Shown in pieces: positions 2,768 through 63,167 of a stretch of 64,000 bases of DNA. The notes beneath the pieces are model-generated. The model was given only the letters and a program-made list of their open reading frames with translations. It had not been told where the DNA came from and did not search any database. The stretch lies in assembly GCF_055900595.2 (NCBI RefSeq), contig NZ_CM148325.1, one strand, 5' to 3'. The translations under genes were made by a program, and so were the position numbers. The first letter of the stretch is position 1, and the number at the start of each line of letters is the position of its first letter.

Positions 2768-3613
2768 TCAGCCACGTCTTGCACGCTGGATGTCGCGTAT
2801 CCGCTGTTTTTCTGCGCGCGCCATCAGATACCAGGCGATAAATCCGACAATTCCGACCGCGCCGAGGATCAATGTTGCCAGGGCGTTGATTTCCGGATTT
2901 ACCCCCATCCGCACGCTGGAGAAGACCAGCATCGGTAACGTGGTGGCTCCTGGCCCGGAAACAAAGCTGGCAATCACCAGATCGTCGAGCGACAGAGTAA
3001 AAGCCAGTAACCAGCCAGAAATGATCGCGGGCATGATCATCGGTAGCGTAATGACGAAAAACACTTTCAGTGGCGTCGCACCAAGATCCATCGCTGCTTC
3101 TTCTATCGAGCTATCCAGTTCCCGCAGACGCGACGAAATAACGACTGCCACATAAGCCGTACAGAAAGTGACATGCGCCAGCCAGATGGTGAGCATGCCT
3201 CGCTCCGCAGGCCAGCCGATGGCATGTGCAAGTGCGACGAATAACAACAACAGCGACAAGCCTGTGATGACATCTGGCATTACCAGCGGCGCGGTGATCA
3301 TAAAGGCAAAACCATTTGATCCGCGAAACCTGCCAAAACGCACCAGCACTACCGCCGCAATCGTCCCGAGGATCGCCGCTGCCGTTGCCGCACAGGCTGC
3401 AATTGTCAGGCTTAAACCAACCGCGCTCATCATCGCGTCATCACGCAGTAATTCGCCATACCAGCGCGTTGACCAACCCGCCCATACCGTCACCAACTTC
3501 GAGCTGTTGAATGAATAGATCACCAGCATCAGCATTGGCGCGTAGAGAAAGGTGAAGCCCAGCAGCAAAATCACAATCCGCCAGGGCGAACGAACCACCG
3601 GTAAATTATTCAT
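2768..3613 (-). CDS. potI: putrescine ABC transporter permease PotI
   Basis: 281 aa from ATG at 3613 (MNNLPVV...); ATG overlaps potH stop (ATGA); ABC permease signature. Confidence 0.92.
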   Translation of the reverse strand: MNNLPVVRSPWRIVILLLGFTFLYAPMLMLVIYSFNSSKLVTVWAGWSTRWYGELLRDDAMMSAVGLSLTIAACAATAAAILGTIAAVVLVRFGRFRGSNGFAFMITAPLVMPDVITGLSLLLLFVALAHAIGWPAERGMLTIWLAHVTFCTAYVAVVISSRLRELDSSIEEAAMDLGATPLKVFFVITLPMIMPAIISGWLLAFTLSLDDLVIASFVSGPGATTLPMLVFSSVRMGVNPEINALATLILGAVGIVGFIAWYLMARAEKQRIRDIQRARRG

Positions 3614-4563
3614 CCGTGTTCTCCCACGCTTTTTTGCTGATGCTTGTGGAACCACATTATCGGCACAATTAGCAGCAGCAACATGATGATCGCTACCGCC
3701 GAGGCCACCGGCCAGTCGCGGTTATTGAAAAACTCCTGCCACAGCACGCGCCCGATCATGATGCTGTCCGGGCCACCGAGCAGTTCAGGGATCACAAACT
3801 CGCCCACAGCCGGGATAAACACCAGCATCGATCCGGCAATAATCCCGCCTTTGGTCAGCGGCACGATCACAGTAAAGAACGTTTTCAGCGGTCGTGCACC
3901 GAGATCCAGTGCCGCTTCCACCAGCGAATAATCAATACGAATCAACGCGGTATAAATCGGCAGCACCATAAACGGTACATAGGCATAAACAATGCCGATA
4001 TAAACAGCCAGGTTTGTATGCAGAATGGTCAGCGGCTGGTCGATAACTCCCAGCCACAGCAGAAAGTTATTCAGCACGCCGTTATTTTTTAATATTCCCA
4101 TCCAGGCATAGACGCGGATCAGAAACGAGGTCCACGACGGCAGGATCACCAGCAGCAATAAGATATTGCGGGTCGAAGGCTTACTGTGCGCCACCGCCCA
4201 CGCCAGCGGATAGCCGATCAGTAAACAACAAATTGTCGAAATCGCCGCTACCTGTAACGACTGGAGATATGCATCGAAATAGAGCGGATCGTCAGTCAGT
4301 TGCAGGAAATTACCAAGATTGAGGGTGATGGAAAGTTGCCCGTCAGCCCACTCCATCAGTTCGGTATAAGGTGGAATAGCGCGCGCCATCTCCGCCAGAC
4401 TTATTTTAAAGACGATCAGAAATGGCAGCAGAAACAGTAAGATCAACCAGATATACGGCAACGCAATGACCAGTTTGCGCCCATGCTTCATTTGCAGCTG
4501 CGACAACCACAGCTTAAATCCGCCCGGCGGTTTCGACTGGGCAGCAGGTTCAAGTGTACTCAT
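3610..4563 (-). CDS. potH: putrescine ABC transporter permease PotH
   Basis: 317 aa ORF, multi-TM ABC permease, operon position. Confidence 0.93.
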   Translation of the reverse strand: MSTLEPAAQSKPPGGFKLWLSQLQMKHGRKLVIALPYIWLILLFLLPFLIVFKISLAEMARAIPPYTELMEWADGQLSITLNLGNFLQLTDDPLYFDAYLQSLQVAAISTICCLLIGYPLAWAVAHSKPSTRNILLLLVILPSWTSFLIRVYAWMGILKNNGVLNNFLLWLGVIDQPLTILHTNLAVYIGIVYAYVPFMVLPIYTALIRIDYSLVEAALDLGARPLKTFFTVIVPLTKGGIIAGSMLVFIPAVGEFVIPELLGGPDSIMIGRVLWQEFFNNRDWPVASAVAIIMLLLLIVPIMWFHKHQQKSVGEHG

Positions 4564-4572
4564 CTTTGCTCC

Positions 4573-5706
4573 TTAAACCGTCAACACCACACAGCTGTCC
4601 ACTTCCCAGCACAAACGCACTTCGTCGCCCCAGGTCGGTAACCCTTTGCGATAACGATGGGCGTTTTGTAGCTGGGCGCTAATCATTTGCCCGCTTTTTA
4701 GACGAACGTGATACACCGAAAGATCGCCGAGATAGGCAATGTGCATCACCTCCCCTACCGCGAAGTTACAACCATTGGCGGGCGGTGCTTCGCAAAGCAT
4801 GATTTTTTCCGGCCGCAGCGCCACATGCACCGGCACGTTATCGACCACCGAAGCATCTACATCAACTTTCAGTGGATGCACCAGCCCCGGCGAATAAAGC
4901 ACCAGACCATCTTCCTGACGCTCTTTGAGTACACCTTCAAAGACGTTTACCGAACCGATAAATTCAGCACTGTAGCGCGTGGTCGGATGCTCGTAGATCT
5001 CTTCCGGCTCGCCAATCTGGACAAATTTCCCACGATTCATAATGGCGATACGCCCCGCCATCGTCATCGCCTCTTCCTGATCGTGAGTAACCATCACGCA
5101 GGTCACACCGACACGTTCCAGAATATCCACCACTTCAAGCTGCATCCGGTCACGCAGTTTTTTATCCAGCGCGCCCATCGGCTCGTCGAGCAGTAATAGT
5201 TTCGGACGTTTGGCGAGGCTTCGGGCCAGCGCCACACGCTGTCGCTGACCGCCGGAAAGCTGATGCGGTTTGCGTTTGGCGAACTCCTGCATATGCACCA
5301 GCCCAAGCATCTCATTGACCCGGCTGGCAATTTCCGCTTTCGGCAATTTGTCCTGTTTCAGGCCAAAAGCGATGTTCTGTTCCACGGTCATATGCGGAAA
5401 CAGCGCGTAAGACTGAAACATCATATTGATAGGGCGCAGGTAAGGCGGTACCTGTGATAAATCGACGCCATCGAGCATAATCTGCCCGGCAGAAGGTTGT
5501 TCGAAACCTGCCAGCATACGCAGCAGCGTGGACTTGCCACAGCCGGATGCGCCCAGCAGCGCGAAGATTTCGCCTTTATAGATGGTCAGGCTGACATCAT
5601 CGACCGCATGCTGACCATCGTAAGATTTAGTCAGATTACGGATTTCTAATAGCGGCGTCAGCGCCTTACGGGTTTTCGCCTGGGGGCGAGGGATAGCGTC
5701 ATTCAC
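4573..5706 (-). CDS. potG: putrescine ABC transporter ATP-binding protein PotG
   Basis: GTG start at 5706 (plus-strand CAC at 5704..5706) gives 377 aa beginning (M)NDAIPRPQAK; Walker A GASGCGKST, LSGGQRQR signature. Confidence 0.9.
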   Translation of the reverse strand: MNDAIPRPQAKTRKALTPLLEIRNLTKSYDGQHAVDDVSLTIYKGEIFALLGASGCGKSTLLRMLAGFEQPSAGQIMLDGVDLSQVPPYLRPINMMFQSYALFPHMTVEQNIAFGLKQDKLPKAEIASRVNEMLGLVHMQEFAKRKPHQLSGGQRQRVALARSLAKRPKLLLLDEPMGALDKKLRDRMQLEVVDILERVGVTCVMVTHDQEEAMTMAGRIAIMNRGKFVQIGEPEEIYEHPTTRYSAEFIGSVNVFEGVLKERQEDGLVLYSPGLVHPLKVDVDASVVDNVPVHVALRPEKIMLCEAPPANGCNFAVGEVMHIAYLGDLSVYHVRLKSGQMISAQLQNAHRYRKGLPTWGDEVRLCWEVDSCVVLTV

Positions 5707-5800
5707 GGCTGCTCTCCGGCATTGAATGTGTGCAAGCGCACCCTGATGGTGCGAATTGCCGGCGGGTGTGGTGCGCCCGTCCGGCATCTACGGCTGCGGA

Positions 5801-6913
5801 TTATTTTCCGCTCTTCACTTTGGTCCACGCGCGGGTGCGCACACGGTCGATTTTCGGATCCTGCACTTTCAGAGTGAACAGCTTCGCACGGACATCCGCA
5901 GGCGGGTAAATACCGGGGTTATCACGCACTTCCGCGCTTACCAGCGGCGTAGCTTCTTTGTTCGCGTTGGCATAGAACACATGGTCAGAGATATGCGCTA
6001 CGACATCCGGACGCAGCAGGTAATTCAGGAACTGATAAGCTTCGTCTTTATTTTTGGCATCCGCAGGCATGGCAAATACATCAAAGAATGCCATCGCCCC
6101 TTCTTTCGGAATCGAGAACGAGACATTCACGCCATTCTTTGCTTCCTTCGCGCGGTTTGACGCCTGCCAGACATCGCCCGCCCAGCCAATAGCGACGCAG
6201 ATATCGCCGTTTGCCAGGTCGTTAATGTATTGAGATGAATGGAAATAACGAATGTTCGGGCGCAGCTTTAACAGCAGATCGGTTGCCGGTCCGGTGTAAT
6301 CATCTGCTTTAGTGCTGTTGGGATCTTTACCGAGATAATTCAGCACGGTAGCAAACACTTCTTCCGGTGCATCAAGGAAAGAGACGCCGCAGCTTTTCAG
6401 TTTTTCCAGATTTTCAGGTTTGAGGATCAAGTCCCAGCTATCGACGGGCGCGTTTTCACCCAGTACAGCTTTGACTTTATCGACGTTATAGCCAATCCCG
6501 GTCGTCGCCCACATATAGGGCATAGCAAATTTATTATCCGGGTCATGTTTAGCGACCAGCTTCAGCAGTTCCGGGTCGAGATTCTTCCACTCCGGCAATT
6601 TGTTTTTATCCAGTGGCTGGAAAACTCCCGCTGTCAGCTGGCGTTCAAGAAAGCTTGCTGACGGCACCACCAGGTCAAACCCGGTGCTCCCCGCCATTAA
6701 TTTTCCTTCCAGTACTTCGTTGGAATCGAAAACATCGTAAACGACTTAAATACCGGTTTCTTTTTCAAAATTGGCCACCGTATCCGGGGCGATATAATCA
6801 GACCAGTTATAGATGTGGAGTGTTTTTTGTTCAGCCGCGAGCGTGCCGACAGAGACGGCCATCAGAGCACCCGCAACCAGACCCGATAGCCATTTTTTAT
6901 TTAAGGCGGTCAT
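5801..6913 (-). pseudogene. potF: putrescine-binding periplasmic protein PotF, interrupted by in-frame TAA stop at codon 56
   Basis: ATG at 6913 ([11 protein letters not shown]... signal peptide) and stop at 5801 span the 370-codon length expected for PotF, but plus-strand TTA at 6746..6748 is an in-frame TAA (...FEKETGI*VVYDVF...); ORF track splits the gene into 6746..7063 and 5801..6697 in the same frame. Confidence 0.85.
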
Positions 6914-6972
6914 ATCTCTTTCCTTCTGAAAGTTCGTTAACAAACGAACAAAAGTTGTCACACTGAAAGATA

Positions 6973-6988
6973 TGCAATATTCGTGCAT
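6973..6988 (-). promoter_or_regulatory. putative sigma54-like -24/-12 element upstream of potF
   Basis: minus-strand ATGCACGAATATTGCA resembles TGGCAC-N5-TTGCA but has TG instead of GG at -24; low confidence. Confidence 0.2.
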
Positions 6989-7263
6989 ATTTTTTATCGG
7001 CTCGGTGTAAGAAAAGAGAACTCTCTCCCGGCCAGCACTGCTCGCTATATAAAAGCATCGCAAGAATAACTTTAGCCAGGGTTTGAGACTATAGCTCGAT
7101 TTAAAAAACGGTATTTAACAAATTTTTATGCGTATTTGCTCTATGTGATAAAGCCAAATCGGCACAAGAGAAGTGAAATAATCTTTAAGAAGAGGTTAAA
7201 AACAGCAGATAATTTTGCAGCACGCAGTCACTGCGGCAGCGACTGCGTACTCTAAAGGAGTTA

Positions 7264-7740
7264 TCAGTGGAGGAAATAGTTTTCGGTAACGTTGTTTTGC
7301 CCTTCATCGTCAGTCGGTAACAGCAGTTGATGGGCATTAGCTTCAAGAATGACCATCGAAATCTGCTCTTCGCTCTGACGCACGAACCATGCAAACTGCT
7401 CATAGGTTACGCCCTGCATAACGGATAAAGACTGGCAAACCACCAGCTTTGGCAGATTATCATCCTGCATATCAAGAAATGCTTTCACGGTCAGCGAACT
7501 GGCATTGATGGCTGATAAATCCGCCGCCAGCGGTAACACGGCTGAAGGTCGGACTTCCGCCATGGCAGAAAACAGGATCGTGTTATCGATCAGATCGATT
7601 TTGGCATCAAAGACACCGTCGAAATTCTGCATATGGGGCAGATGCAGAGCCTGACAGTTATCACATTCAAAAAAACTCATCCCCAGGTCATCGAGCCATT
7701 GACGCAACGTATCCAGACCAGGAACGACCAGCGATGTCAT
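7264..7740 (-). CDS. ybjN: YbjN family protein (putative sensory transduction regulator)
   Basis: 158 aa from ATG at 7740 (MTSLVVPGLD...). Confidence 0.9.
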   Translation of the reverse strand: MTSLVVPGLDTLRQWLDDLGMSFFECDNCQALHLPHMQNFDGVFDAKIDLIDNTILFSAMAEVRPSAVLPLAADLSAINASSLTVKAFLDMQDDNLPKLVVCQSLSVMQGVTYEQFAWFVRQSEEQISMVILEANAHQLLLPTDDEGQNNVTENYFLH

Positions 7741-45998: not shown

Positions 45999-46027
45999 AA
46001 AGGCGGACTCATAATCCGCCTTTTTTA
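45999..46027. terminator. bidirectional rho-independent terminator between ldtB and ybiR
   Basis: stem AGGCGGA/TCCGCCT flanked by A-run and T-run. Confidence 0.75.
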
Positions 46028-46038
46028 TTTGCCAGCAC

Positions 46039-47157
46039 CTAGCTGGCCGGGAACATAACTAACAAAACGTATCCCACCAGCGCCGCCCACAACAGCATCG
46101 GTATCGAATAAAGATGAAAACGCCACCAGATACGGCGATCGTTCGCCATCCGTAATGCAATCAAATTTGCCAGCGATCCGGGTAATAAACCAAAGCCACC
46201 GACGTTTACCGCCCATGCCAGTAATAAAGACGGTGGCACATAATTGAGGAGCAAAATCGTGCTCGGCACATTACTGATCACCTGCGATAAACCAATTGCC
46301 GTTAACCATAATCCGGGTTCGGATAAATGGCTCACATTGCTCAACACGCCCTGCAAAGCTGGCAGTTGGGTCAGCAAATGGACGTCGATAAACATCGCCA
46401 TAAATACCAGCAGCAGCGTCCAGTCCACGCTGATCACCACGCGACGAGCCAGCAGCGCAAAGCCCGCCGCTACAATCACCAGTCCCCACAGCTCTTGTTT
46501 TAACTCCAGCGCCGTCAGAAAGACGATATACAGCCCCAGACAACTCCACACCAGCCGCGGTTTCCACTCAGGTGTTTGCGCCCCCGTATGATATTGCAGC
46601 GCCTTTCCAGGGAAACAACACCAGCACAGTAGCAGGAGTGTCAGCATCATTGCGCCAGCCAGCGGTGCCATTTGGGCAATAAACCCGGCAAACGAAAGAC
46701 CAGAACGACCCCAGATAAGAATATTTTGCGGGTTGCCAATCGGCGTCAGTAGCGAACCCGCATTGACTGCTAGCGCCTCAAAAATAATCAGTCGATTAAC
46801 CGGGATCTCACACAGTCTTTTTAGTGTGATTGTCAGCGGAACAACAATAAACAGCGCGACATCGTTGGTCAGAAATGTTGAAAGCAACGCCGCCGCCAGC
46901 ACCATAAACATTGCCAGCCGACGCTCAGTAGCAAAGCGGCGCACCATTTTGCGCCCCAGCACATCAAAATAACCGCTTAACTCCACACCTTTGGTCAGCA
47001 GCATCAGGCCACTGAGGGTGATGATAGTGTGCCAGTCGATAGCAGCAAGCCAGGATTTCGGTGCAAAGGGAACGAAAAAACTTAATCCGATGCCAACAAG
47101 AATTAATAACTGAAAAAAACGATCGCCTTGCAGCGTGCGTAAAAAAGGCAGGCTCAT
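46039..47157 (-). CDS. ybiR: inner membrane transporter YbiR (ArsB/NhaD superfamily)
   Basis: 372 aa polytopic membrane protein; start overlaps mntR stop. Confidence 0.9.
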
Positions 47158-47621
47158 TTGGCACCGTGTTTCTGGGTAAACAAACGAAAGGCATCCAGCG
47201 TCTCTTCACTGACATGGTGCTCCATGCCTTCCGCGTCGCGACGAGCGATTTCCGGGCTGACGCCCAACACCAACAAGAAATTTTCGACTATCTGATGTCG
47301 CTCGCGGCTTTCCTGCGCCAGTTTCTCTCCTTCTGCCGTTAAAAACACGCCACGCCAGGGGATCATTTCAATCAGCCCCATGGTTGCCAGTCGTTTGAGC
47401 ATTTTAGCCACCGTCGGTTGCGAAACGCCCAGACGAGCAGCCATGTCCACCTGACGAGCTTCCCCCACTTCCCTGATCAAGTCAGAAATCAGCTCAACGT
47501 AATCATCAATAAGCTCGCGCCGGTGTGCCTCTCTGACCTGGCGGAACCCTTCAACGTGCTCTTCCACATTCACTAACTGCGTCACTTTTTTTGCTGTTGG
47601 CGTACCTGCGCGACGACTCAT
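47154..47621 (-). CDS. mntR: manganese-responsive transcriptional regulator MntR
   Basis: 155 aa DtxR-family regulator. Confidence 0.93.
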
Positions 47622-47730
47622 TGTGCTTCCTCATTATGGTGACGCATACATAGCGTTCTCATTTCGTGTGCACATTGTAAACCAGAGTTGCGAAGGTACA
47701 AAAAATTAACGTTTTAGCAATAGCTATATA

Positions 47731-47746
47731 ATATAGCCTGTGCTAT
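47731..47746. promoter_or_regulatory. putative MntR operator upstream of mntS
   Basis: palindrome TATAGC-CTGT-GCTATA resembling the ATAGC-N4-GCTAT core of MntR boxes, about 60 bp upstream of the mntS ATG. Confidence 0.45.
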
Positions 47747-47806
47747 ATCTGTATGTAATGCAATCATCTCTCAAGGATCGACGGGATTAGCAAGTCAGGA
47801 GGTCTT

Positions 47807-47935
47807 ATGAATGAGTTCAAGAGGTGTATGCGCGTGTTTAGTCATTCTCCCTTTAAAGTACGGTTAATGCTGCTCTCTATGTTGTGCGATATGGTCAACA
47901 ACAAACCGCAGCAAGATAAACCTTCCGATAAATAG
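47807..47935 (+). CDS. mntS: small protein MntS (manganese homeostasis, formerly rybA locus)
   Basis: 42-aa ORF MNEFKRCMRVFSHSPFKVRLMLLSMLCDMVNNKPQQDKPSDK with AGGAGG RBS; below the ORF-track length cutoff, found by eye. Confidence 0.85.
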   Translation: MNEFKRCMRVFSHSPFKVRLMLLSMLCDMVNNKPQQDKPSDK

Positions 47936-48206
47936 CGGCGTCGCGGTACGCCGCTTCACTCCTGCTTTTATGCAGGAACAACGCGTTTTGCTCTGAAAAA
48001 CCCCACTTTTTGTCGGATTTGCAATCCCCTTCGCAAAAGATTTGTTCGTCAGTAGTTGACCTGAACGGCTGCTCGCTCTATCTTCTTGCAGCCCTGCGTA
48101 TATTGCGGCTCGCGGATGCGGACCCCTTTCCCCTCTTCACGCACTCTTGCAGGTATTGACCCTTGACGCCAGGGTAAGCACATGGCGTTTGTTACGATAG
48201 TGGCAT

Positions 48207-49790
48207 ATGAATTTAACCCTCAAAGAATCGCTTGTTACCCGTAGCCGGGTATTTAGCCCGTGGACTGCGTTCTACTTTTTACAGTCGCTATTAATTAACC
48301 TCGGCTTAGGTTACCCCTTCAGTTTGCTATACACCGCCGCATTTACGGCTATTTTGCTTTTGCTATGGCGAACATTGCCTCGCGTGCAAAAAGTTCTGCT
48401 CGGCGTCAGTTCACTGGTCGCCGCTTGTTATTTCCCTTTTGCACAGGCCTACGGCGCGCCTAACTTCAATACCTTGCTGGCATTGCATTCCACCAATATG
48501 GAAGAGTCGACCGAAATCCTGACGATTTTTCCGTGGTACAGCTACCTGGTCGGCTTATTTATTTTTGCGCTCGGCGTAATAGCAATCAGGCGGAAAAAAG
48601 AGAGCGAAAAAGCGCGCTGGAATACCTTCGACAGTCTGTGTCTGGTATTCAGTGTGGCGACATTTTTTGTTGCTCCCGTGCAAAATCTGGCCTGGGGCGG
48701 CGTATTTAAACTGAAAGATACTGGCTATCCGGTATTTCGTTTTGCTAAGGATGTCATCGTCAATAATAACGAGGTGATTGAAGAGCAAGAACGGATGGCA
48801 AAACTTTCCGGAATGAAAGATACCTGGACGGTCACTGCCGTTAAGCCGAAGTATCAGACCTATGTGGTGGTGATCGGTGAAAGTGCGCGTCGCGATGCCC
48901 TCGGTGCCTTTGGCGGTCACTGGGATAATACCCCGTTTGCCAGCAGCGTTAACGGTTTGCTTTTTGCTGACTACATTGCTGCCAGTGGCTCCACACAGAA
49001 ATCGCTTGGCTTAACACTCAATCGCGTAGTCGATGGCAAACCACAGTTTCAGGATAACTTTGTCACCCTGGCAAATCGCGCGGGCTTTCAGACCTGGTGG
49101 TTTTCCAATCAGGGCCAAATCGGCGAATACGATACCGCCATCGCCAGCATCGCCAAACGGGCAGATGAAGTGTATTTCCTGAAAGACGGTAATTTTGAAG
49201 CAGATAAAAACACGAAAGACGAAGCGTTACTGGATATGACCGCGCAGGTGCTGGCGCAAGAACACTCGCAACCGCAACTGATTGTTTTACATCTGATGGG
49301 CTCACATCCACAGGCCTGCGACCGGACACAAGGCAAATACGCAACCTTTGTGCAATCGAAAGAAACGTCATGCTATCTCTATACCATGACACAAACGGAC
49401 GATTTGTTGCGTAAGCTGTACGACCAGTTACGCAATAGCGGCAGCAGCTTCTCGCTGGTTTACTTTGCGGACCACGGTCTGGCCTTTAAAGAACGCGGCA
49501 AAGACGTGCAATACCTTGCCCATGATGATAAGTATCAGCAAAATTTCCAGGTGCCTTTTATGGTCATTTCGAGCGACGATAAAGCGCATCGGGTGATTAA
49601 AGCCCGCCGTTCAGCCAATGACTTTTTAGGCTTTTTCTCGCAGTGGACGGGAATTAAAGCGAAGGAAATTAACATCAAATACCCGTTTATATCTGAGAAG
49701 AAAGCCGGGCCGATATACATCACCAACTTCCAGTTACAGAAGGTAGATTACAACCATCTCGGAACCGATATTTTCGACCCGAAACCTTAA
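48207..49790 (+). CDS. opgE: phosphoethanolamine transferase OpgE (YbiP)
   Basis: 527 aa; N-terminal TM helices plus sulfatase-like domain. Confidence 0.92.
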   Translation: MNLTLKESLVTRSRVFSPWTAFYFLQSLLINLGLGYPFSLLYTAAFTAILLLLWRTLPRVQKVLLGVSSLVAACYFPFAQAYGAPNFNTLLALHSTNMEESTEILTIFPWYSYLVGLFIFALGVIAIRRKKESEKARWNTFDSLCLVFSVATFFVAPVQNLAWGGVFKLKDTGYPVFRFAKDVIVNNNEVIEEQERMAKLSGMKDTWTVTAVKPKYQTYVVVIGESARRDALGAFGGHWDNTPFASSVNGLLFADYIAASGSTQKSLGLTLNRVVDGKPQFQDNFVTLANRAGFQTWWFSNQGQIGEYDTAIASIAKRADEVYFLKDGNFEADKNTKDEALLDMTAQVLAQEHSQPQLIVLHLMGSHPQACDRTQGKYATFVQSKETSCYLYTMTQTDDLLRKLYDQLRNSGSSFSLVYFADHGLAFKERGKDVQYLAHDDKYQQNFQVPFMVISSDDKAHRVIKARRSANDFLGFFSQWTGIKAKEINIKYPFISEKKAGPIYITNFQLQKVDYNHLGTDIFDPKP

Positions 49791-49795
49791 AAACA

Positions 49796-49824
49796 AAAAT
49801 CCGCCCCGTGAGGCGGATTTTTTA
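49796..49824. terminator. bidirectional rho-independent terminator between opgE and ompX
   Basis: stem AATCCGCC/GGCGGATT flanked by A-run and T-run. Confidence 0.8.
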
Positions 49825-49838
49825 TATCACCGAAGTGA

Positions 49839-50354
49839 TTAGAAGCGGTAACCAACACCGGCAATCCAGGTGCCTACGTCAACGCTACGAATACGGCTCT
49901 GCTCGTAAGAGAAGTCCAGAGCAACGTTTTCCATCGGGTTAAACTGCAGACCTGCACCGTAGGAGAAACCGTAGTCGCTGGTGTCGTGTTTGTAGGTCGG
50001 GTATTCAGTGGTCTGGAATTTACCATAACCCACACCCACTACACCATAGATGCTTGCCCAGTCGTTAATGCGGTAAGCCGGACCAGCAGTGATGCCGTAG
50101 TACTGGTTTTTGTTGTAGTCACCAGAGCTTGCAGTACGGCTTTTCTCGGTGTAAGTGAAAGAACCGATCACACCCAGCGGGCTGTTGTCTTCTTCATAGC
50201 GGTATTTCAGGTTGAAACCGCCCATTTTGTTCATTTGGCCCTGAGCGTCGCTCTGTGCGTAACCGCCAGTTACGGTAGAAGTCGCAGCTACGGAAGTACC
50301 TGCGGTGAAAGCCAGAACTGCGGCCAGTGCTGAAAGACATGCAATTTTTTTCAT
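49839..50354 (-). CDS. ompX: outer membrane protein X
   Basis: 171 aa from ATG at 50354; signal peptide, 8-strand beta-barrel pattern ending in F. Confidence 0.95.
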   Translation of the reverse strand: MKKIACLSALAAVLAFTAGTSVAATSTVTGGYAQSDAQGQMNKMGGFNLKYRYEEDNSPLGVIGSFTYTEKSRTASSGDYNKNQYYGITAGPAYRINDWASIYGVVGVGYGKFQTTEYPTYKHDTSDYGFSYGAGLQFNPMENVALDFSYEQSRIRSVDVGTWIAGVGYRF

Positions 50355-50706
50355 AACCACCTCAAATGTGATTCAAATAAGTCCTAAGTTTTAAATATAT
50401 CAAAAATTAATGGGAAACTCTTCGCGATTTGTGATGTCTAACGGGCCATTTCATGTAACAGAACGTTTCCATAAACCGCTATCCATCTAAAATTAAATCA
50501 CTTTTTCAGAGAACTGCATAAGTATTACGCATGTTTTCCCTGTCATTCATCCAGATTATTCCTAATCACCAGACTAATGATTCCATCAATCCTGGCGCAT
50601 TTTAGTCAAAACGGGGGAAAATTTTTTCAACAAATGCTCAACCAGCATTGGGTATATCCAGTACACTCCACGCTTTACTTAGGTTTAGATATTTGTGGGA
50701 GAAAGG

Positions 50707-51594
50707 ATGCCTGGTTCATTACGTAAAATGCTGGTCTGGTTACCAATAGTCATATTGCTCGTTGCCATGGCGTCTATTCAGGGTGGAGCCTCGTTAGCTA
50801 AGTCACTTTTTCCTCTGGTGGGCGCACCGGGTGTCACTGCGCTGCGTCTGGCATTAGGAACGCTGATCCTCATCGCGTTCTTTAAGCCATGGCGACTGCG
50901 CTTTGCCAAAGAGCAGCGGTTACCGCTGTTGTTTTACGGCGTTTCGCTGGGTGGGATGAATTATCTTTTTTATCTTTCTATTCAGACAGTACCGCTGGGT
51001 ATTGCGGTGGCGCTGGAGTTCACCGGACCACTGGCGGTGGCGCTGTTCTCTTCTCGTCGCCCGGTAGATTTCATCTGGGTTGTGCTGGCGGTTCTTGGTC
51101 TGTGGTTCCTGCTACCGCTGGGGCAAGACGTTTCCCATGTCGATTTAACCGGCTGTGCGCTGGCACTGGGAGCAGGGGCTTGTTGGGCTATTTACATTTT
51201 AAGTGGGCAACGCGCAGGAGCGGAACATGGCCCTGCGACGGTGGCAATTGGTTCGTTGATTGCAGCGTTAATTTTCGTGCCAATTGGAGCGCTTCAGGCT
51301 GGTGAAGCACTCTGGCACTGGTCGGTTATTCCATTGGGTCTGGCGGTCGCTATTCTCTCGACCGCTCTGCCTTATTCGCTGGAAATGATTGCCCTCACCC
51401 GTTTGCCAACGCGGACATTTGGTACGCTGATGAGCATGGAACCGGCGCTGGCTGCCGTTTCCGGGATGATTTTCCTCGGAGAAACATTGACACCCATACA
51501 GCTGCTGGCGCTCGGCGCTATCATCGCCGCTTCAATGGGTTCTACGCTGACAGTACGCAAAGAGAGCAAAATAAAAGAATTAGACATTAATTAA
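50707..51594 (+). CDS. rhtA: threonine/homoserine exporter RhtA (YbiF)
   Basis: 295 aa from ATG at 50707 (MPGSLRKMLVWL...), DMT/EamA family. Confidence 0.92.
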   Translation: MPGSLRKMLVWLPIVILLVAMASIQGGASLAKSLFPLVGAPGVTALRLALGTLILIAFFKPWRLRFAKEQRLPLLFYGVSLGGMNYLFYLSIQTVPLGIAVALEFTGPLAVALFSSRRPVDFIWVVLAVLGLWFLLPLGQDVSHVDLTGCALALGAGACWAIYILSGQRAGAEHGPATVAIGSLIAALIFVPIGALQAGEALWHWSVIPLGLAVAILSTALPYSLEMIALTRLPTRTFGTLMSMEPALAAVSGMIFLGETLTPIQLLALGAIIAASMGSTLTVRKESKIKELDIN

Positions 51595-51602
51595 ATTTAC
51601 AT

Positions 51603-51632
51603 TTCTGCATGGTTATGCATAACCATGCAGAA
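51603..51632. repeat. perfect 30-bp inverted repeat (likely rhtA terminator hairpin or protein site)
   Basis: TTCTGCATGGTTATG/CATAACCATGCAGAA, perfectly self-complementary, 9 bp after rhtA stop. Confidence 0.6.
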
Positions 51633-51748
51633 TTTCTCGCTACTTTTCCTCCACACCGTCTTTATATATCGAATTATGCAAAAGCATATTTATTCCGAAA
51701 ATTCCTGGCGAGCCAATAAATAAGAATTGTTCTTATCAATATATCTAA

Positions 51749-52396
<648 letters not shown>

Positions 52397-52436
52397 ATCC
52401 ATCGCTGATGGTGGAGAACTTTAGTACCCGATAAAA

Positions 52437-52467
52437 GCGGCTTCCTGACAGGAGGCCGTTTTGTTTT
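52437..52467 (+). terminator. rho-independent terminator of dps
   Basis: stem GCGGCTTCCTG/CAGGAGGCCG followed by TTTTGTTTT. Confidence 0.75.
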
Positions 52468-52626
52468 GCAGCCCACCTCAACGCACTTATTTAGTGCATC
52501 CATCTGCTATCTCCAGCTGATTAAGTAAATTTTTTGTATCCACATCATCACACAATCGTTACATAAAGATTGTTTTTTCATCAGGTTTTACGCTAAATAA
52601 TCACTGTGTTGAGTGCACAATTTTAG

Positions 52627-52657
52627 CGCACCAGTTTGGTGCCCCAGAATGGTGCAT
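52627..52657. promoter_or_regulatory. tandem NtrC binding sites of the glnH promoter
   Basis: GCACCAGTTTGGTGC and CCCCAGAATGGTGCA match TGCACCA-N3-TGGTGCA. Confidence 0.7.
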
Positions 52658-52729
52658 CTTCAGGGTATTGCCCTATAAATCGTGCATTACGTTTTTGCCG
52701 CATCTCGATAAATCAATGAGTTGCAAAAC

Positions 52730-52745
52730 TGGCACGATTTTTTCA
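52730..52745 (+). promoter_or_regulatory. sigma54 promoter glnHp2 (-24/-12)
   Basis: TGGCACGATTTTTTCA, about 55 bp upstream of glnH ATG, downstream of the NtrC sites. Confidence 0.7.
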
Positions 52746-52784
52746 TATATGTGAATGTCACGCAGGGGATCGTCCCGTGGATAG

Positions 52785-53546
<762 letters not shown>

Positions 53547-53560
53547 TAATGCTACGCCTG

Positions 53561-53630
53561 TAAAGCGCACTGGCAGTTCCCTCTCCCCTCTGGGGAGAGG
53601 ATTAGGGTGAGGGGCGCAAACCCGCTCCGG
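53561..53630. repeat. GC-rich intergenic repeat (BoxC-like) between glnH and glnP
   Basis: CCCTCTCCCCTCTGGGGAGAGG...AGGGTGAGGGGCGCAAACCCGCTCCGGGGCC, self-complementary; resembles E. coli BoxC from memory. Confidence 0.5.
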
Positions 53631-53684
53631 GGCCATTAATTACCCTGAATTTGATTATTTACACCACGGTAACAGGAACAACAT

Positions 53685-54344
53685 ATGCAGTTTGACTGGA
53701 GTGCCATCTGGCCTGCCATTCCGCTTCTGATTGAAGGTGCCAAAATGACCCTGTGGATTTCGGTCCTCGGTCTAGCTGGCGGCCTGGTGATCGGATTGCT
53801 GGCAGGTTTTGCACGCACCTTCGGTGGTTGGATATCCAACCACGTCGCGCTGGTCTTTATTGAAGTGATCCGCGGCACACCTATCGTCGTCCAGGTGATG
53901 TTTATCTACTTCGCCCTGCCGATGGCGTTTAACGACTTACGCATCGACCCATTTACTGCGGCGGTGGTCACCATCATGATCAACTCCGGCGCATACATTG
54001 CGGAAATCACGCGTGGTGCGGTGCTGTCTATCCACAAAGGTTTCCGTGAAGCAGGACTGGCTCTCGGCCTTTCACGTTGGGAAACCATTCGCTACGTCAT
54101 TTTACCGCTGGCACTGCGCCGTATGCTGCCGCCGCTGGGTAACCAGTGGATCATCAGCATTAAAGATACCTCGCTGTTTATTGTTATCGGCGTGGCGGAA
54201 CTGACCCGTCAGGGGCAAGAAATTATTGCCGGTAACTTCCGCGCCCTTGAGATCTGGAGCGCCGTGGCGGTGTTCTATCTGATTATTACCCTGGTGCTGA
54301 GCTTTATTCTGCGTCGTCTGGAAAGAAGGATGAAAATCCTGTGA
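53685..54344 (+). CDS. glnP: glutamine ABC transporter permease GlnP
   Basis: 219 aa permease. Confidence 0.94.
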
Positions 54345-55063
54345 TTGAATTTAAAAACGTCTCCAAGCATTTTGGTCCAACCCAGGTGCTGCACAATATC
54401 GATTTGAACATTGCCCAGGGCGAAGTCGTGGTGATTATCGGGCCGTCCGGTTCCGGTAAATCGACCCTGCTGCGCTGCATCAACAAACTGGAAGAAATCA
54501 CCTCCGGCGATCTGATTGTCGATGGCCTGAAGGTTAACGATCCGAAAGTTGACGAGCGCCTGATTCGCCAGGAAGCGGGTATGGTGTTCCAGCAGTTTTA
54601 CCTCTTCCCGCATCTGACGGCGCTGGAAAACGTGATGTTTGGTCCACTACGCGTGCGTGGCGCGAACAAAGAAGAGGCGGAAAAACTGGCGCGTGAGCTG
54701 CTGGCGAAAGTCGGTCTGGCAGAACGTGCACATCACTACCCTTCCGAACTTTCTGGTGGTCAACAGCAGCGTGTGGCGATCGCCCGCGCGCTGGCGGTGA
54801 AGCCGAAAATGATGCTGTTTGATGAACCGACTTCCGCTCTTGACCCGGAACTGCGCCATGAAGTGCTGAAGGTTATGCAGGATCTGGCTGAAGAAGGGAT
54901 GACGATGGTGATCGTGACACACGAAATCGGTTTTGCCGAGAAAGTCGCTTCGCGCCTGATCTTTATCGACAAAGGCCGGATTGCGGAAGATGGCGATCCG
55001 CAGGTGTTGATCAAGAACCCACCGAGCCAGCGCTTGCAGGAATTTTTGCAGCACGTCTCTTAA
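54341..55063 (+). CDS. glnQ: glutamine ABC transporter ATP-binding protein GlnQ
   Basis: 240 aa; Walker [18 protein letters not shown]; start overlaps glnP stop. Confidence 0.95.
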
Positions 55064-55070
55064 CTTCTCA

Positions 55071-55096
55071 GCCTCCCTTTCTTCCGAAAGGGAGGC
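55071..55096 (+). terminator. hairpin downstream of glnQ
   Basis: stem CCTCCCTTT/AAAGGGAGG; no clear T-run. Confidence 0.4.
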
Positions 55097-55179
55097 ACAC
55101 CAGATTCCTCTCATTTAAAATCGCCCCTCCCCCAGCATCTATACTTATCTTTTTGCTCTGTTTTCTCACTGGAGGAGTC

Positions 55180-57405
55180 ATGCGGTGGATCCTGTTCATC
55201 CTCTTCTGCCTGCTGGGCGCACCTGCCCACGCGGTATCCATACCCGGCGTTACAACCACAACGACAACGGACTCAACGACTGAACCGGCCCCGGAACCGG
55301 ATATCGAACAAAAAAAAGCGGCCTATGGCGCACTGGCGGATGTGCTGGATAATGACACCTCGCGTAAAGAGTTGATCGACCAGTTGCGCACCGTCGCCGC
55401 GACGCCCCCTGCGGAACCCGTACCGAAGATCGTGCCGCCGACGCTGGTTGAAGAGCAAACCGTGCTGCAAAAAGTCACCGAAGTCAGCCGCCATTATGGT
55501 GAAGCCCTTTCCGCCCGCTTCGGACAACTTTATCGCAATATCACCGGCTCCCCGCATAAGCCGTTTAATCCACAAACCTTCAGCAATGCGCTGACCCATT
55601 TTTCAATGTTAGCGGTATTAGTGTTTGGTTTTTACTGGCTGATTCGCCTGTGCGCGCTGCCGCTGTATCGCAAAATGGGCCAGTGGGCACGGCAAAAAAA
55701 TCGTGAGCGCAGTAACTGGTTGCAGCTTCCGGCGATGATTATCGGGGCGTTTATTATCGACCTGCTGTTACTGGCACTGACATTATTTGTCGGTCAGGTT
55801 TTAAGCGACAACCTGAATGCGGGCAGTCGCACCATCGCTTTCCAACAAAGTTTGTTTCTCAACGCCTTTGCCCTGATTGAATTTTTCAAAGCCGTACTAC
55901 GCCTGATTTTTTGCCCCAACGTGGCGGAGCTGCGCCCGTTTACGATTCAGGACGAAAGCGCCCGTTACTGGAGTCGTCGCCTGAGCTGGTTAAGCAGCCT
56001 GATTGGGTATGGTCTGATTGTGGCTGTGCCGATTATCTCTAATCAGGTGAATGTGCAAATCGGTGCGCTAGCGAACGTCATCATTATGCTGTGCATGACC
56101 GTCTGGGCGCTGTACCTGATCTTTCGTAATAAAAAAGAGATTACGCAGCATTTGCTCAACTTCGCGGAACACTCGCTGGCCTTTTTCAGCCTGTTTATTC
56201 GCGCTTTTGCGCTGGTGTGGCACTGGTTGGCAAGCGCCTATTTTATCGTGCTGTTTTTCTTTTCGTTGTTCGATCCGGGCAACAGCCTGAAATTTATGAT
56301 GGGTGCAACGGTACGCAGCCTGGCGATTATTGGTATCGCCGCGTTTGTTTCCGGTATGTTTTCCCGCTGGCTGGCGAAAACCATCACTCTCTCGCCACAT
56401 ACTCAGCGTAACTATCCGGAGCTGCAAAAACGGTTGAACGGCTGGCTTTCGGCGGCGCTGAAAACGGCGCGTATTCTGACAGTCTGCGTGGCGGTAATGT
56501 TGCTGTTGAGCGCATGGGGATTGTTCGATTTCTGGAACTGGCTGCAAAACGGCGCGGGGCAGAGAACCGTAGATATCCTGATCCGTATCGCACTCATTCT
56601 TTTCTTCTCGGCGGTTGGCTGGACGGTGCTCGCCAGTTTGATCGAAAACCGGCTGGCTTCGGATATTCATGGCCGCCCGCTACCCAGCGCCCGTACGCGT
56701 ACCCTGCTGACGCTGTTCCGTAACGCGCTGGCGGTGATTATCAGTACCATCACCATCATGATTGTGTTGTCGGAAATCGGCGTTAATATCGCGCCATTGC
56801 TGGCAGGTGCCGGGGCATTAGGTCTGGCTATCTCGTTTGGTTCGCAAACGCTGGTGAAAGATATTATCACCGGGGTATTTATTCAGTTTGAAAACGGCAT
56901 GAACACTGGAGATTTGGTGACTATCGGGCCGTTGACCGGCACTGTGGAACGGATGTCGATTCGCTCCGTGGGCGTACGCCAGGATACCGGGGCGTATCAC
57001 ATCATTCCGTGGTCTTCGATTACCACCTTTGCTAACTTTGTCCGCGGCATTGGTTCGGTAGTGGCAAATTATGATGTTGATCGCCATGAAGATGCTGATA
57101 AAGCCAATCAGGCACTGAAAGATGCGGTAGCGGAATTAATGGAAAACGAAGAAATTCGCGGGTTGATTATCGGTGAACCGAACTTTGCCGGGATTGTCGG
57201 CTTAAGCAATACCGCATTTACACTGCGTGTTTCGTTCACCACGCTGCCACTCAAACAATGGACGGTCCGCTTTGCCCTCGACAGCCAGGTGAAAAAACAT
57301 TTCGACCTGGCGGGCGTTCGCGCGCCAGTGCAGACTTATCAGGTGCTGCCTGCTCCGGGCGCGACCCCGGCTGAACCGTTGCCGCCGGGGGAACCAACGC
57401 TTTAA
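55180..57405 (+). CDS. ybiO: mechanosensitive channel YbiO (MscS family)
   Basis: 741 aa from ATG at 55180 ([18 protein letters not shown] signal peptide); multiple TM helices and C-terminal MscS domain. Confidence 0.9.
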
Positions 57406-58328
57406 CGCTGGCGATTGACAAAACGGCGGCGCTGCTCGTCGTTCATAAAGGTCCAGGCAATAAAGCGGCTCTGCTTTTGCCCCTGGGCCATCTCTTTTTT
57501 GACCACTTTCACCGCGCCCACGTCCGTCAGAGCACGATACAACGGCGGTAAGTTTTCGCCACGAGATACCAGCGAGGTAAACCACATCACCTGCTTCGCG
57601 AAGCCTTTGCTCTCTTCAATCATCTTTTTGATAAAAGCCACTTCACCGCCTTCACACCACAACTCCTGTTGCTGACCACCAAAGTTCAATGCATCGTCTT
57701 TGTTCAGCCCCAGATTACGCCGTTTACGCTCACTACCCGCCCGTGCCGCAGCGGCGGAATCGTGGAATGGCGGGTTACACAAGGTCGCGTCGTATTGCTC
57801 GTTTTTGTGGATAATACCGTTAAAAATCGCCCCGCTCTCTTTTTGCCGACGCAGACGAATGGCGCGATTAAGCCCCGGATTAGCGCTGATGATCGCCTGC
57901 GCGCTGCTTAACGCCTGGCTGCTGGTTTCACTACCGGTAAAACGCCAGCCGTATTCATGTACGCCAATCAGCGGATAAATACAGTTCGCACCAACGCCGA
58001 TATCCAGAATGCTGGCATTAGCTGGAATTGTTCCGCTTGCTTCTGCCAGTAAATCGGCAAGGTGATGAATATAATCCGCCCGGCCCGGTACTGGCGGGCA
58101 GAGAAAACCGTCGGGGATATCCCAGTTCGCTACGGCGTAAAAATGGGCCAGCAACGCCTTATTGAGCGCCTTCACCGCCAGCGGATTGGCAAAGTCTACG
58201 CTTTGCTCCCCGGCGGGTGTAAGCGTGAGGAATTGCCTGAGTTCAGGATTCACCTGACAAAGCGTGGCGAGATCGTAGCGGCTGTGATGACGGTTGCGCG
58301 GATGCAACCCCGGTTTCTGGGCGGACAT
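57402..58328 (-). CDS. rlmF: 23S rRNA (adenine1618-N6)-methyltransferase RlmF (YbiN)
   Basis: 308 aa from ATG at 58328; NPPF motif; stop shares TTAA with ybiO stop. Confidence 0.9.
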
Positions 58329-58602
58329 AGCATTCTCCTTTAAGCAGCGGCGTAAGATACCCGCATAACGCGACAGGGTAAATATCTGGCTGCGTTTATC
58401 ATTCTCCAAACCTTAACATGACTATGGTTTATGGCTATTCACCATAAAAATCAGCATCATTCATGTCATTGATTTGTCTTATTTTGTAAAAATATATCGT
58501 TCAAAAAATAAGCACATCTCTGTCAATTTTTTGCGTCATTTGCATCGCGCAGGCGACCTACACTTATCAGGCACTACCCGTTGTATTTATGAGGATGTCA
58601 TT

Positions 58603-58863
58603 ATGAAAAAGTGCCTCACACTACTGATTGCCACCGTCCTGAGCGGGCTCTCTCTCACGGCTTATGCCGCGCAACCAATGAGTAACCTGGACAGCGGTCA
58701 GCTACGGCCCGCCGGTACCGTTTCGGCAACTGGCGCATCAAACCTAAGCGATCTGGAGGATAAACTGGCAGAAAAAGCGCGCGAACAAGGCGCGAAAGGT
58801 TATGTCATTAATTCCGCAGGCGGAAATGACCAGATGTTCGGTACTGCAACCATCTACAAATAA
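58603..58863 (+). CDS. mcbA: DUF1471 (YhcN family) secreted protein McbA (YbiM)
   Basis: 86 aa from ATG at 58603 with signal peptide; adjacent to rlmF as expected. Confidence 0.85.
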   Translation: MKKCLTLLIATVLSGLSLTAYAAQPMSNLDSGQLRPAGTVSATGASNLSDLEDKLAEKAREQGAKGYVINSAGGNDQMFGTATIYK

Positions 58864-58997
58864 CCCCACCAACGTAACTGCATTCGCCTCTGGATGCAGT
58901 TTTCGCCTGTTTTGTAATCAAAAAACATCAAATATGAACTTAATGTAAATAAATGTATTTCTTTTTCGCGCAATGGGTGATAGAAAATCGCGCTAAG

Positions 58998-59025
58998 TGA
59001 TAATGCTTATCAAAATTATTATCAC
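58998..59025. promoter_or_regulatory. Fur box in fiu promoter
   Basis: GTGATAATGCTTATCAAAATTATTATCAC resembles GATAATGATAATCATTATC; about 100 bp upstream of fiu ATG. Confidence 0.7.
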
Positions 59026-59127
59026 TTGCACGAACACTATCACGGGATTAACAGTGGCATCGCATCCGCAGAGAGGCTTTCTCGTGACAGTGAAAATTTC
59101 AACATATAAGAAAAAGTCACCTGCAAA

Positions 59128-61410
59128 ATGGAAAACAATCGCAATTTCCCTGCCAGACAATTTCATTCGCTCACGTTCTTTGCCGGTCTTTGTATTGGCA
59201 TCACGCCTGTGGCACAGGCACTCGCCGCCGAAGGGCAAGCTAACGCGGATGACACGCTGGTTGTCGAAGCATCAACGCCTTCGCTTTACGCGCCACAACA
59301 ATCTGCCGATCCGAAATTCTCGCGTCCGGTAGCAGATACTACCCGCACGATGACGGTGATTTCTGAACAAGTGATTAAAGATCAGGGTGCAACCAACCTT
59401 ACCGATGCGCTCAAAAACGTCCCCGGCGTGGGTGCATTTTTTGCTGGTGAGAACGGTAACTCCACCACTGGCGACGCCATTTATATGCGCGGTGCCGATA
59501 CTTCTAACAGTATTTATATTGATGGGATTCGCGATATCGGCAGCGTCTCGCGCGACACTTTCAATACAGAGCAGGTCGAAGTAATTAAAGGGCCGTCCGG
59601 CACCGACTACGGGCGCAGCGCGCCGACGGGCTCGATCAATATGATCAGCAAGCAGCCGCGCAATGATTCAGGCATTGACGCTTCCGCCAGTATTGGCAGC
59701 GCCTGGTTCCGCCGCGGCACGCTGGACGTCAATCAGGTCATTGGTGATACCACCGCGGTGCGCCTGAATGTGATGGGTGAAAAAACGCACGATGCCGGAC
59801 GCGACAAAGTTAAAAATGAGCGTTACGGCATCGCCCCTTCTGTCGCTTTTGGCCTTGGCACAGCGAATCGTTTGTATCTTAATTATCTGCATGTCACCCA
59901 GCACAACACGCCAGACGGCGGCATTCCGACCATCGGTTTGCCGGGCTATTCTGCCCCATCGGCGGGAACGGCGGCCCTGAATCATTCCGGAAAAGTTGAT
60001 ACGCATAACTTTTACGGCACGGATTCCGATTACGACGATTCGACCACCGACACCGCTACCATGCGTTTTGAGCACGACATCAACGATAACACCACCATTC
60101 GCAACACTACCCGTTGGTCGCGCGTGAAGCAGGATTACCTGATGACGGCGATTATGGGCGGGGCGTCGAATATTACCCAGCCCACCAGCGATGTGAATAG
60201 CTGGACCTGGTCACGCACGGCGAATACCAAGGATGTGAGTAATAAAATTCTCACCAACCAGACCAACCTGACCTCGACGTTCTATACCGGTTCTATCGGT
60301 CATGATGTCAGTACTGGCGTGGAATTTACCCGTGAAACGCAGACTAACTATGGCGTTAATCCGGTGACGTTACCTGCGGTGAATATTTATCATCCTGACA
60401 GCAGCATTCATCCTGGCGGCCTGACGCGTAACGGCGCAAACGCCAATGGTCAGACGGATACCTTCGCAATTTATGCCTTCGATACGCTGCAAATCACCCG
60501 TGATTTTGAGCTGAACGGCGGGATCCGTCTGGATAATTATCATACTGAATATGACAGTGCCACCGCCTGCGGCGGCAGTGGCCGAGGTGCCGTTACCTGC
60601 CCAGCTGGCGTGGCGAAAGGTTCTCCGGTCACCACTGTTGACACCGCCAAGTCTGGCAATCTGGTGAACTGGAAAGCCGGGGCGCTGTATCACCTGACGG
60701 AAAACGGCAATGTCTATATTAACTATGCCGTTTCCCAGCAGCCTCCGGGCGGCAACAACTTCGCCCTTGCGCAGTCTGGCAGCGGTAACAGTGCCAACCG
60801 CACCGATTTTAAACCGCAAAAAGCCAACACCAGCGAGATTGGCACCAAATGGCAGGTTCTGGATAAACGCCTGTTGCTCACCGCCGCGCTGTTCCGTACT
60901 GATATCGAAAATGAAGTTGAGCAAAATGATGACGGAACTTACTCGCAATACGGTAAGAAACGCGTCGAAGGCTATGAGATATCCGTGGCCGGGAATATCA
61001 CTCCCGCGTGGCAGGTGATTGGCGGCTATACCCAGCAAAAAGCAACCATCAAAAACGGCAAAGATGTTGCCCAGGATGGTTCCTCATCGCTGCCGTATAC
61101 CCCGGAGCACGCCTTTACCTTATGGAGCCAGTATCAGGCAACCGATGATATCTCTGTTGGCGCGGGCGCTCGCTATATCGGCAGTATGCATAAAGGTTCA
61201 GACGGCGCGGTGGGAACGCCAGCATTTACCGAGGGTTATTGGGTCGCCGATGCCAAACTGGGGTATCGGGTTAATCGCAATCTCGACCTCCAGCTAAACG
61301 TCTACAACCTGTTTGATACCGATTACGTCGCCTCAATCAACAAGAGCGGCTACCGTTATCACCCGGGCGAGCCAAGAACCTTCCTGCTTACCGCCAATAT
61401 GCATTTCTGA
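59128..61410 (+). CDS. fiu: TonB-dependent catecholate siderophore receptor Fiu
   Basis: 760 aa; signal peptide, TonB box DTLVVEA, C-terminal F. Confidence 0.95.
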   Translation: MENNRNFPARQFHSLTFFAGLCIGITPVAQALAAEGQANADDTLVVEASTPSLYAPQQSADPKFSRPVADTTRTMTVISEQVIKDQGATNLTDALKNVPGVGAFFAGENGNSTTGDAIYMRGADTSNSIYIDGIRDIGSVSRDTFNTEQVEVIKGPSGTDYGRSAPTGSINMISKQPRNDSGIDASASIGSAWFRRGTLDVNQVIGDTTAVRLNVMGEKTHDAGRDKVKNERYGIAPSVAFGLGTANRLYLNYLHVTQHNTPDGGIPTIGLPGYSAPSAGTAALNHSGKVDTHNFYGTDSDYDDSTTDTATMRFEHDINDNTTIRNTTRWSRVKQDYLMTAIMGGASNITQPTSDVNSWTWSRTANTKDVSNKILTNQTNLTSTFYTGSIGHDVSTGVEFTRETQTNYGVNPVTLPAVNIYHPDSSIHPGGLTRNGANANGQTDTFAIYAFDTLQITRDFELNGGIRLDNYHTEYDSATACGGSGRGAVTCPAGVAKGSPVTTVDTAKSGNLVNWKAGALYHLTENGNVYINYAVSQQPPGGNNFALAQSGSGNSANRTDFKPQKANTSEIGTKWQVLDKRLLLTAALFRTDIENEVEQNDDGTYSQYGKKRVEGYEISVAGNITPAWQVIGGYTQQKATIKNGKDVAQDGSSSLPYTPEHAFTLWSQYQATDDISVGAGARYIGSMHKGSDGAVGTPAFTEGYWVADAKLGYRVNRNLDLQLNVYNLFDTDYVASINKSGYRYHPGEPRTFLLTANMHF

Positions 61411-61460
61411 TTCAGATGTGGGGCGCAGGGCTCACTAATGTTGATGGCGAGAACAGGACT

Positions 61461-61560
61461 GCCTGATGCGCTGCGCTTATCAGGCCTACAAGGTTGTGCA
61501 ATGCATTGAATTCACATCATTTGGTAGGCCGGATAAGGCGTTCACGCCGCATCCGGCATG
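61461..61560. repeat. REP element cluster
   Basis: GCCTGATGCGCTGCGCTTATCAGGCCTACA and GGTAGGCCGGATAAGGCGTTCACGCCGCATCCGGCATG. Confidence 0.8.
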
Positions 61561-63165: not shown

Positions 63166-63167
63166 TT

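Follow-up and report, generated by a model that had tools for sequence, protein, structure and literature searches.

A frame for the putrescine-binding protein PotF, broken by a stop codon, may reflect either an inherited loss of function or an error in a single assembly, and such a frame lies at 5801-6913 of the window (the whole 64,000-nucleotide stretch analysed, from contig NZ_CM148325.1 of RefSeq assembly GCF_055900595.2). Here we consider whether the stop is real, in which lineage and how recently it arose, and what its consequences would be for the remainder of the potFGHI operon, for putrescine uptake and for the strains that carry it.

Identity and interruption of the potF reading frame

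By minus-strand translation, the potF frame runs from an ATG at 6913-6911 to its normal TAA at 5803-5801 and comprises 370 sense-codon positions. Translation of 6913-5801 reveals a single internal stop, a TAA at codon 56 (plus-strand TTA at 6746-6748), in the peptide context ...FEKETGI*VVYDVFDSNE..., with the frame itself ending in ...TKVKSGK*. The features of the locus, all on the minus strand, are as follows.

5801..6913, minus: potF frame, 370 codons plus the normal stop (translation; NF007962; 1A99 match)
6746..6748, minus: premature TAA, codon 56 (AAA in K-12, EC42405 and three aligned clade-I relatives; TAA in the window and in three further loci, L007, L010 and L011)
6749..6913, minus: 55-codon N-terminal ORF encoding signal peptide residues 1-26 and 29 mature residues (translation; 1A99 chain start)
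6704..6708, minus: AAGGA, putative Shine-Dalgarno (SD) core 6 nt upstream of the Met73 ATG (anti-SD duplex -5.7 kcal/mol; function inferred)
5801..6697, minus: residual in-frame ORF, 298 codons from Met73 (ORF list; called by gene callers in public assemblies)
4573..5706, minus: potG (ATPase), intact; 100% identical to PotG of E400634, no stops; NCBIfam PotG equivalog, 849 bits (cut-off 613)
3610..4563, minus: potH (permease), intact; NCBIfam PotH equivalog, 670 bits (cut-off 489)
2768..3613, minus: potI (permease), intact; no stops; NCBIfam PotI equivalog, 600 bits (cut-off 476)

With Lys56 restored, the product matches the NCBIfam PotF equivalog NF007962 across its full length (profile positions 1-370 of 370) at 830 bits, above the cut-off of 636, and aligns with PDB 1A99 over residues 27-370 with 3 substitutions (E = 2.5e-234, ~99% identity). 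The gene also stands first in a potFGHI operon possessing its own ATPase and two permeases, within a gene order (ybjN-potF-potG-potH-potI-ybjO) identical to that of K-12; PotH differs from its E400634 counterpart at one residue (I80T), for which the window has the outgroup allele. Owing to the codon-56 TAA, however, the frame no longer runs uninterrupted to yield a signal peptide and a mature protein of ~344 residues. Given that the solved mature PotF chain (1A99) starts at precursor residue 27, the TAA leaves only the signal peptide and 29 mature residues. Judged from its sequence, the potF locus is a pseudogene and contributes no functional member of the PotF family.

Comparison with K-12 PotF (b0854; PDB 1A99) places this lesion in an otherwise well-preserved gene. 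Both frames are of equal length at 370 codons, the upstream region is conserved, and besides the stop the proteins differ only by S104N, A320E and E331D; at codon 56, in contrast, the window has TAA where K-12 has AAA, such that the mature protein cannot be made. The potF nucleotide sequences have diverged by ~6% (66/1,113; 94.1% identity), as expected for cryptic clade I relative to E. coli sensu stricto. Identity to mainstream E. coli is lower in the 1.5 kb that includes potF than in the 25 kb surrounding it (90-95% versus ~96.5%), and despite this higher divergence the PotF protein differs from that of K-12 at 3 residues only.

Alignment of the upstream region across lineages showed that the promoter-proximal 200 bp of potF are conserved, including a TGCACG-N4-TTGCAT motif. 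This motif, TGCACGAATATTGCA at 6973-6987 (minus strand), lies ~60 nt upstream of the potF ATG; its TGCACG and TTGCAT parts are conserved in K-12 and all aligned lineages, with a spacer that differs. It is a putative sigma-54-like element, similar to the -24/-12 pattern TGGCAC-N5-TTGCA except for a different base in place of the first G.

Lineage of the window and derived state of the stop

A 1,500-bp segment spanning potF, compared by megablast with the 5,426 complete genomes of E. coli in RefSeq, matched only 8 genomes at 99% identity or more, as against 4,018 records at 90-95%. All eight of these closest genomes belong to E. coli cryptic clade I; the six typed as ST485 are GEMS isolates assigned to phylogroup 'Cryptic I' (one 'Cryptic') and OND:H45 (PMC13064198). 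Next in proximity come EC42405 and 2013C-4282, both of which a study of cryptic clade I marks as completely sequenced strains (PMC10100065). Together, the typing of the relatives and the proximity of EC42405 and 2013C-4282 place the window in a lineage of clade I that is a close relative of ST485.

Only 2/1,500 bases, namely 6748 (the stop) and 5876 (synonymous), set the window apart from each of three relatives (Z0117EC0005, E200086 and AST85), and the potF coding sequence of E400634 likewise differs at two bases only. Unlike the window, the potF genes of ST485 cryptic-clade-I genomes (WP_000126061.1; E400634, E200086, AST85, Z0117EC0005 and others) keep AAA and are annotated as functional, and codons 55-57 read ATT AAA GTC (Ile-Lys-Val) in K-12 MG1655, EC42405 and Z0117EC0005, the closest complete genome. 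With AAA present in K-12, in the outgroup EC42405 and in the closest relatives, the TAA represents a derived A-to-T transversion on the coding strand, the derived base being the plus-strand A at 6748 (T on the coding strand). The stop is thus derived with respect to sister lineages and outgroups alike (AAA in Z0117EC0005, E200086, AST85, E400634, EC42405 and K-12).

The original prediction, made from the DNA letters and their translated frames, had placed a TAA at codon 56 of potF, had given K-12 a lysine at this position, and had proposed a single-base change from AAA to TAA. Its coordinates and peptide context agree exactly with the minus-strand translation, the lysine with the AAA codon in the MG1655 alignment, and the one-base change with the alignment to relatives, EC42405 and K-12.

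Evidence for a real allele

An allele-specific 55-mer, which places the mutant base in every 28-mer megablast seed, returned 0 matches in the 5,426 complete RefSeq E. coli genomes and, given its absence from finished reference genomes, the TAA allele at first looked unique. This absence, together with the single base separating the window from the closest complete genomes, speaks for a sequencing or assembly error that conceals a true AAA codon and an intact potF. Against this, exact look-up in NCBI, ENA and Logan located the 298-residue product on 130 public contigs, a haplotype-specific count, and the 55-residue product on 174, a count which mixes at least two alleles, the TAA and an independent +T frameshift (L012, see below). 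The longest contig carrying a split-ORF product is a 5,491,225-bp chromosome. A collection index holds the 298- and 55-residue products in 171 and 247 blocks, respectively, and 55-residue 'PotF, partial' records are held by NCBI.

At the level of DNA, where our reading covers two assemblies, the loci L007 and L010 (GCA_965259665.1) and L011 (GCA_965258375.1) share this TAA, with haplotypes that match the window at 99.88% identity or higher, and the same allele is thereby found in several independently sequenced isolates; the site also lacks a long homopolymer. Low coverage or quality at this base, which the original prediction had named as grounds for withdrawing it, is answered against error by the occurrence of the same allele in many independent public assemblies. 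We consider an error so improbable as to be negligible: it is largely refuted by these comparisons and excluded for practical purposes, and the potF stop is fixed in a well-sampled clade-I sublineage. The TAA allele is, as far as these assemblies indicate, inherited and common to more than 100 public assemblies of one cryptic-clade-I lineage.

Age of the loss and other changes in the window

Leaving the stop aside, 62 synonymous and 3 non-synonymous differences separate potF from its K-12 counterpart (pN/pS 0.015). This low ratio, together with an absence of secondary damage, shows that the loss is recent, and that until a short time ago strong purifying selection had acted on the gene. In one carrier, L011, an extra missense change (T138I, equivalent to window position 6501) has arisen in the dead part of potF, an observation weakly consistent with a lifted constraint on the gene.

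The same features bear on whether the stop might be suppressed or read through, by an ochre-suppressor tRNA or in a context-dependent manner, such that useful full-length PotF is still made. The 314 codons downstream of the stop are undamaged in the window, and tRNA-Lys-derived ochre suppressors are known in laboratory E. coli; an undamaged downstream frame is, however, equally expected of a recent mutation, L011 already has its missense change in the dead part, and among the stop codons of E. coli, UAA gives the most efficient termination. A tRNA scan of the window for an ochre suppressor found no tRNA gene, a result which counts against suppression and has no bearing on the genome beyond the window. 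Suppression is accordingly a highly improbable explanation.

In the first 46 kb, 15 SNPs and one indel separate the window from E400634. Polarisation with EC42405 and K-12 assigned seven changes as derived on the window side:

38: intergenic
4687: potG, synonymous
6748: potF K56*
7192: intergenic, private to the window
21205: yliI G251V, missense, in the aldose sugar dehydrogenase YliI
27059: pdeI Q221*
38055: ybiY, synonymous

These changes include a further nonsense mutation, in pdeI (yliE, encoding a CHASE9/EAL c-di-GMP phosphodiesterase; 25371-27719, minus strand). Codon 221 of pdeI, CAA in E400634 and EC42405, is TAA in the window (plus-strand 27057-27059), and the exact 220-residue N-terminal product of PdeI was located on 217 public contigs, indicating that this stop is also lineage-fixed. 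In tblastn searches of the window with the 60 chromosomal CDSs annotated in E400634, the 58 other than potF and pdeI were intact; the two IS200 transposase genes of E400634 have no counterpart in the window. The original prediction, which had all genes besides potF undamaged, was thus mistaken with respect to pdeI, and the window, on these alignments, holds two nonsense pseudogenes, potF and pdeI.

A number of other differences were observed. At 7192 the window has a plus-strand G, as opposed to an A in all other compared genomes, and the change is absent from L007, L010 and L011; read on the pot strand it is a T-to-C change, which lies just past a terminator-like region of ybjN and ~280 nt upstream of the start codon of potF, and has no evident role. 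A cluster of 5 SNPs in 4325-7192 was considered as a sign of decay or recombination and rejected, since only three of them (the potG synonymous change, the stop and 7192) are derived in the window lineage when polarised with EC42405. L011 also carries a 3-bp insertion in nfsA, equivalent to window position 8819.

Further along the window, the region 46000-63577 differs from E400634 at 112 positions in ~17.6 kb (0.5-1.05%), compared with 0.03% in the preceding 46 kb, and looks like a recombination tract separating the window lineage from ST485. E400634 additionally possesses IS200/IS605 tnpA insertions (~711 bp each) at positions equivalent to ~45996 (ldtB-ybiR spacer) and ~49800 (opgE-ompX spacer), neither of which is found in the window.

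Expression of potGHI downstream of the stop

A premature stop at the head of an operon could also affect the genes behind it, and the original prediction suggested that nonsense polarity might reduce the expression of potGHI. Under a predominantly polar effect, Rho would terminate transcription within ~1 kb of untranslated potF RNA and silence the whole potFGHI operon. Consistent with such an effect are the 1,039 nt between the premature stop and the potG start, and stretches of the mRNA with C in excess of G at about 6425-6186. Furthermore, when 5500-7400 was scanned for promoter and terminator consensus sequences, hits were no more numerous than in shuffled controls; on the pot strand, no convincing site lay in the interval from potF to potG, nor was there a convincing internal sigma-70 promoter upstream of potG.

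Conversely, an in-frame ATG (Met73, 6697), the first in-frame start past the stop, lies only 48 nt beyond it. This codon is preceded by GGAAGGAAAATTA and the native potF start by AGAAGGAAAGAGAT; the two share an identical GAAGGAAA SD core with a predicted anti-SD pairing energy of -5.7 kcal/mol each. Re-initiation at Met73 would keep ribosomes on the message and leave little untranslated RNA for Rho. The SD of Met73 is, however, mostly base-paired in the predicted local fold (mean P(unpaired) of 0.13, versus 0.56 at the native site), which counts against re-initiation. On balance, these models suggest that potGHI expression could be subject to Rho-dependent polarity or be rescued by re-initiation at Met73, and we regard silencing of the whole operon as a genuine possibility, albeit one to which we assign somewhat less than an even chance.

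Re-initiation at Met73 would yield a signal-less, cytoplasmic fragment of 298 residues that is predicted to be non-functional for transport. Also absent from this fragment is the N-terminal stretch with Trp37-Tyr40, residues reported in the paper describing the 1A99 structure to be in contact with putrescine. With PotF absent either way, the expected transport phenotype is the same whichever of the two effects prevails.

Consequences for putrescine uptake

We consider it very probable that the window carries a real, inherited ochre pseudogene, in which an A-to-T change converted Lys56 from AAA to TAA in a sublineage of cryptic clade I close to ST485. Translation would release a peptide of 55 residues, comprising the signal peptide and 29 mature residues, that is unable to fold into the two-lobed binding protein, in line with the original prediction that the product ends after 55 residues and the periplasmic protein is lost. 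Lacking periplasmic PotF, the PotGHI membrane complex would be left without its substrate-delivery partner. From what is known of binding-protein-dependent ABC importers and of PotF itself (Pistocchi et al. 1993; the 1A99 structure), the absence of PotF is expected to abolish high-affinity putrescine uptake through PotFGHI. Conditional uptake of spermidine through PotFGHI, reported under biofilm-forming conditions (PMC8674398), would likewise be lost.

Such a loss may be tolerated owing to other putrescine importers (PuuP, PlaP, PotE and YdcSTUV) and to the cell's own putrescine synthesis. E. coli has several putrescine importers, and deletion of potFGHI in a producer strain left extracellular putrescine unchanged (PMC8674398), while a W3110 potF deletion mutant is viable and loses ~40% of its pili-dependent surface motility (PMC11968103). 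Together, importer redundancy and the viability of the deletion mutant suggest a mild, condition-dependent phenotype. Fixation most likely would have occurred by drift or by hitch-hiking in a clonal expansion, alongside the pdeI nonsense mutation 20 kb away.

Recurrent loss of potF and possible selection

The 55-residue product and other truncated PotF N-termini of the same protein cluster also led to potF loss alleles in other E. coli backgrounds. In locus L012 (2001-3114; GCA_053182365.1, 96% identical), an extra T at the same ATTAAAG site shifts the frame at codon 55/56 (+T) and results in the same 55-residue peptide. A further allele, Q92* (CAG to TAG), occurs on two different haplotypes, represented by L014/L015 and by L016 (each 1501-1776; SRR14673595, ERR3328577 and SRR11949189), and L72* was found in L020 (1501-1716; SRR21628781). 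As in the window, each of these alleles (+T, Q92* and L72*) truncates the protein early and leaves potGHI behind; in contrast to the window, they represent different mutations on haplotypes 94-96% identical to it, and are therefore independent events. PotF N-termini of 66 residues (P0018) and most of those of 71 residues (P0021) were rejected as loss alleles, reflecting contig ends, and were left uncounted. Inactivation of potF is, by this comparison of alleles, recurrent in E. coli, which without a per-gene base rate does not amount to proof of selection.

These independent inactivations (L012, L014/L015, L016 and L020) nonetheless raise the prospect that loss of potF, perhaps together with pdeI, was advantageous and aided expansion of the lineage through effects on polyamine uptake, biofilm or surface motility. 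The 46 kb contain five derived coding changes, of which two are nonsense mutations, both fixed in more than 100 assemblies; this proportion lies above the usual neutral mutation spectrum, counts against drift and could point to selection. Furthermore, PotF, like PlaP, has an effect on pili-dependent surface motility (PMC11968103). However, given the very large number of public E. coli assemblies, any non-essential gene is expected to show a handful of independent nonsense alleles, and five coding changes give too small a sample for statistics. Literature searches found no link between potF loss and fitness, and the intact potGHI genes are equally compatible with a recent neutral loss. We consider selected loss unlikely, and fixation by drift or hitch-hiking remains the explanation that we prefer.

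More elaborate, and in our estimation still less probable to the point of being rather remote, is a scenario in which selection has repeatedly favoured the loss of potF in E. coli, with the paired potF and pdeI nonsense mutations being adaptive steps during expansion of the sublineage in human hosts and PotGHI being kept by re-initiation at Met73, possibly for another use. If true, the paired loss would alter both polyamine uptake and c-di-GMP signalling, and hence biofilm or surface behaviour.

Implications for cryptic clade I

Taken alone, the K56* allele represents an ordinary recent pseudogene of a well-understood transporter with redundant back-ups, and implies no new mechanism. No paper on this allele, or on pseudogenised or nonsense-mutated potF in E. 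coli, emerged from the literature searches, and the allele was already present, unremarked, in public assemblies. Strains carrying it are predicted to have lost the high-affinity PotFGHI route for putrescine and, conditionally, for spermidine, and the allele offers a handy single-base marker for one cryptic-clade-I sublineage. Clade I includes emerging ETEC and STEC pathogens (PMC10100065); given these pathogens and the role of PotF in the surface motility of K-12, the allele could merit a place in a lineage-wide survey of gene loss.
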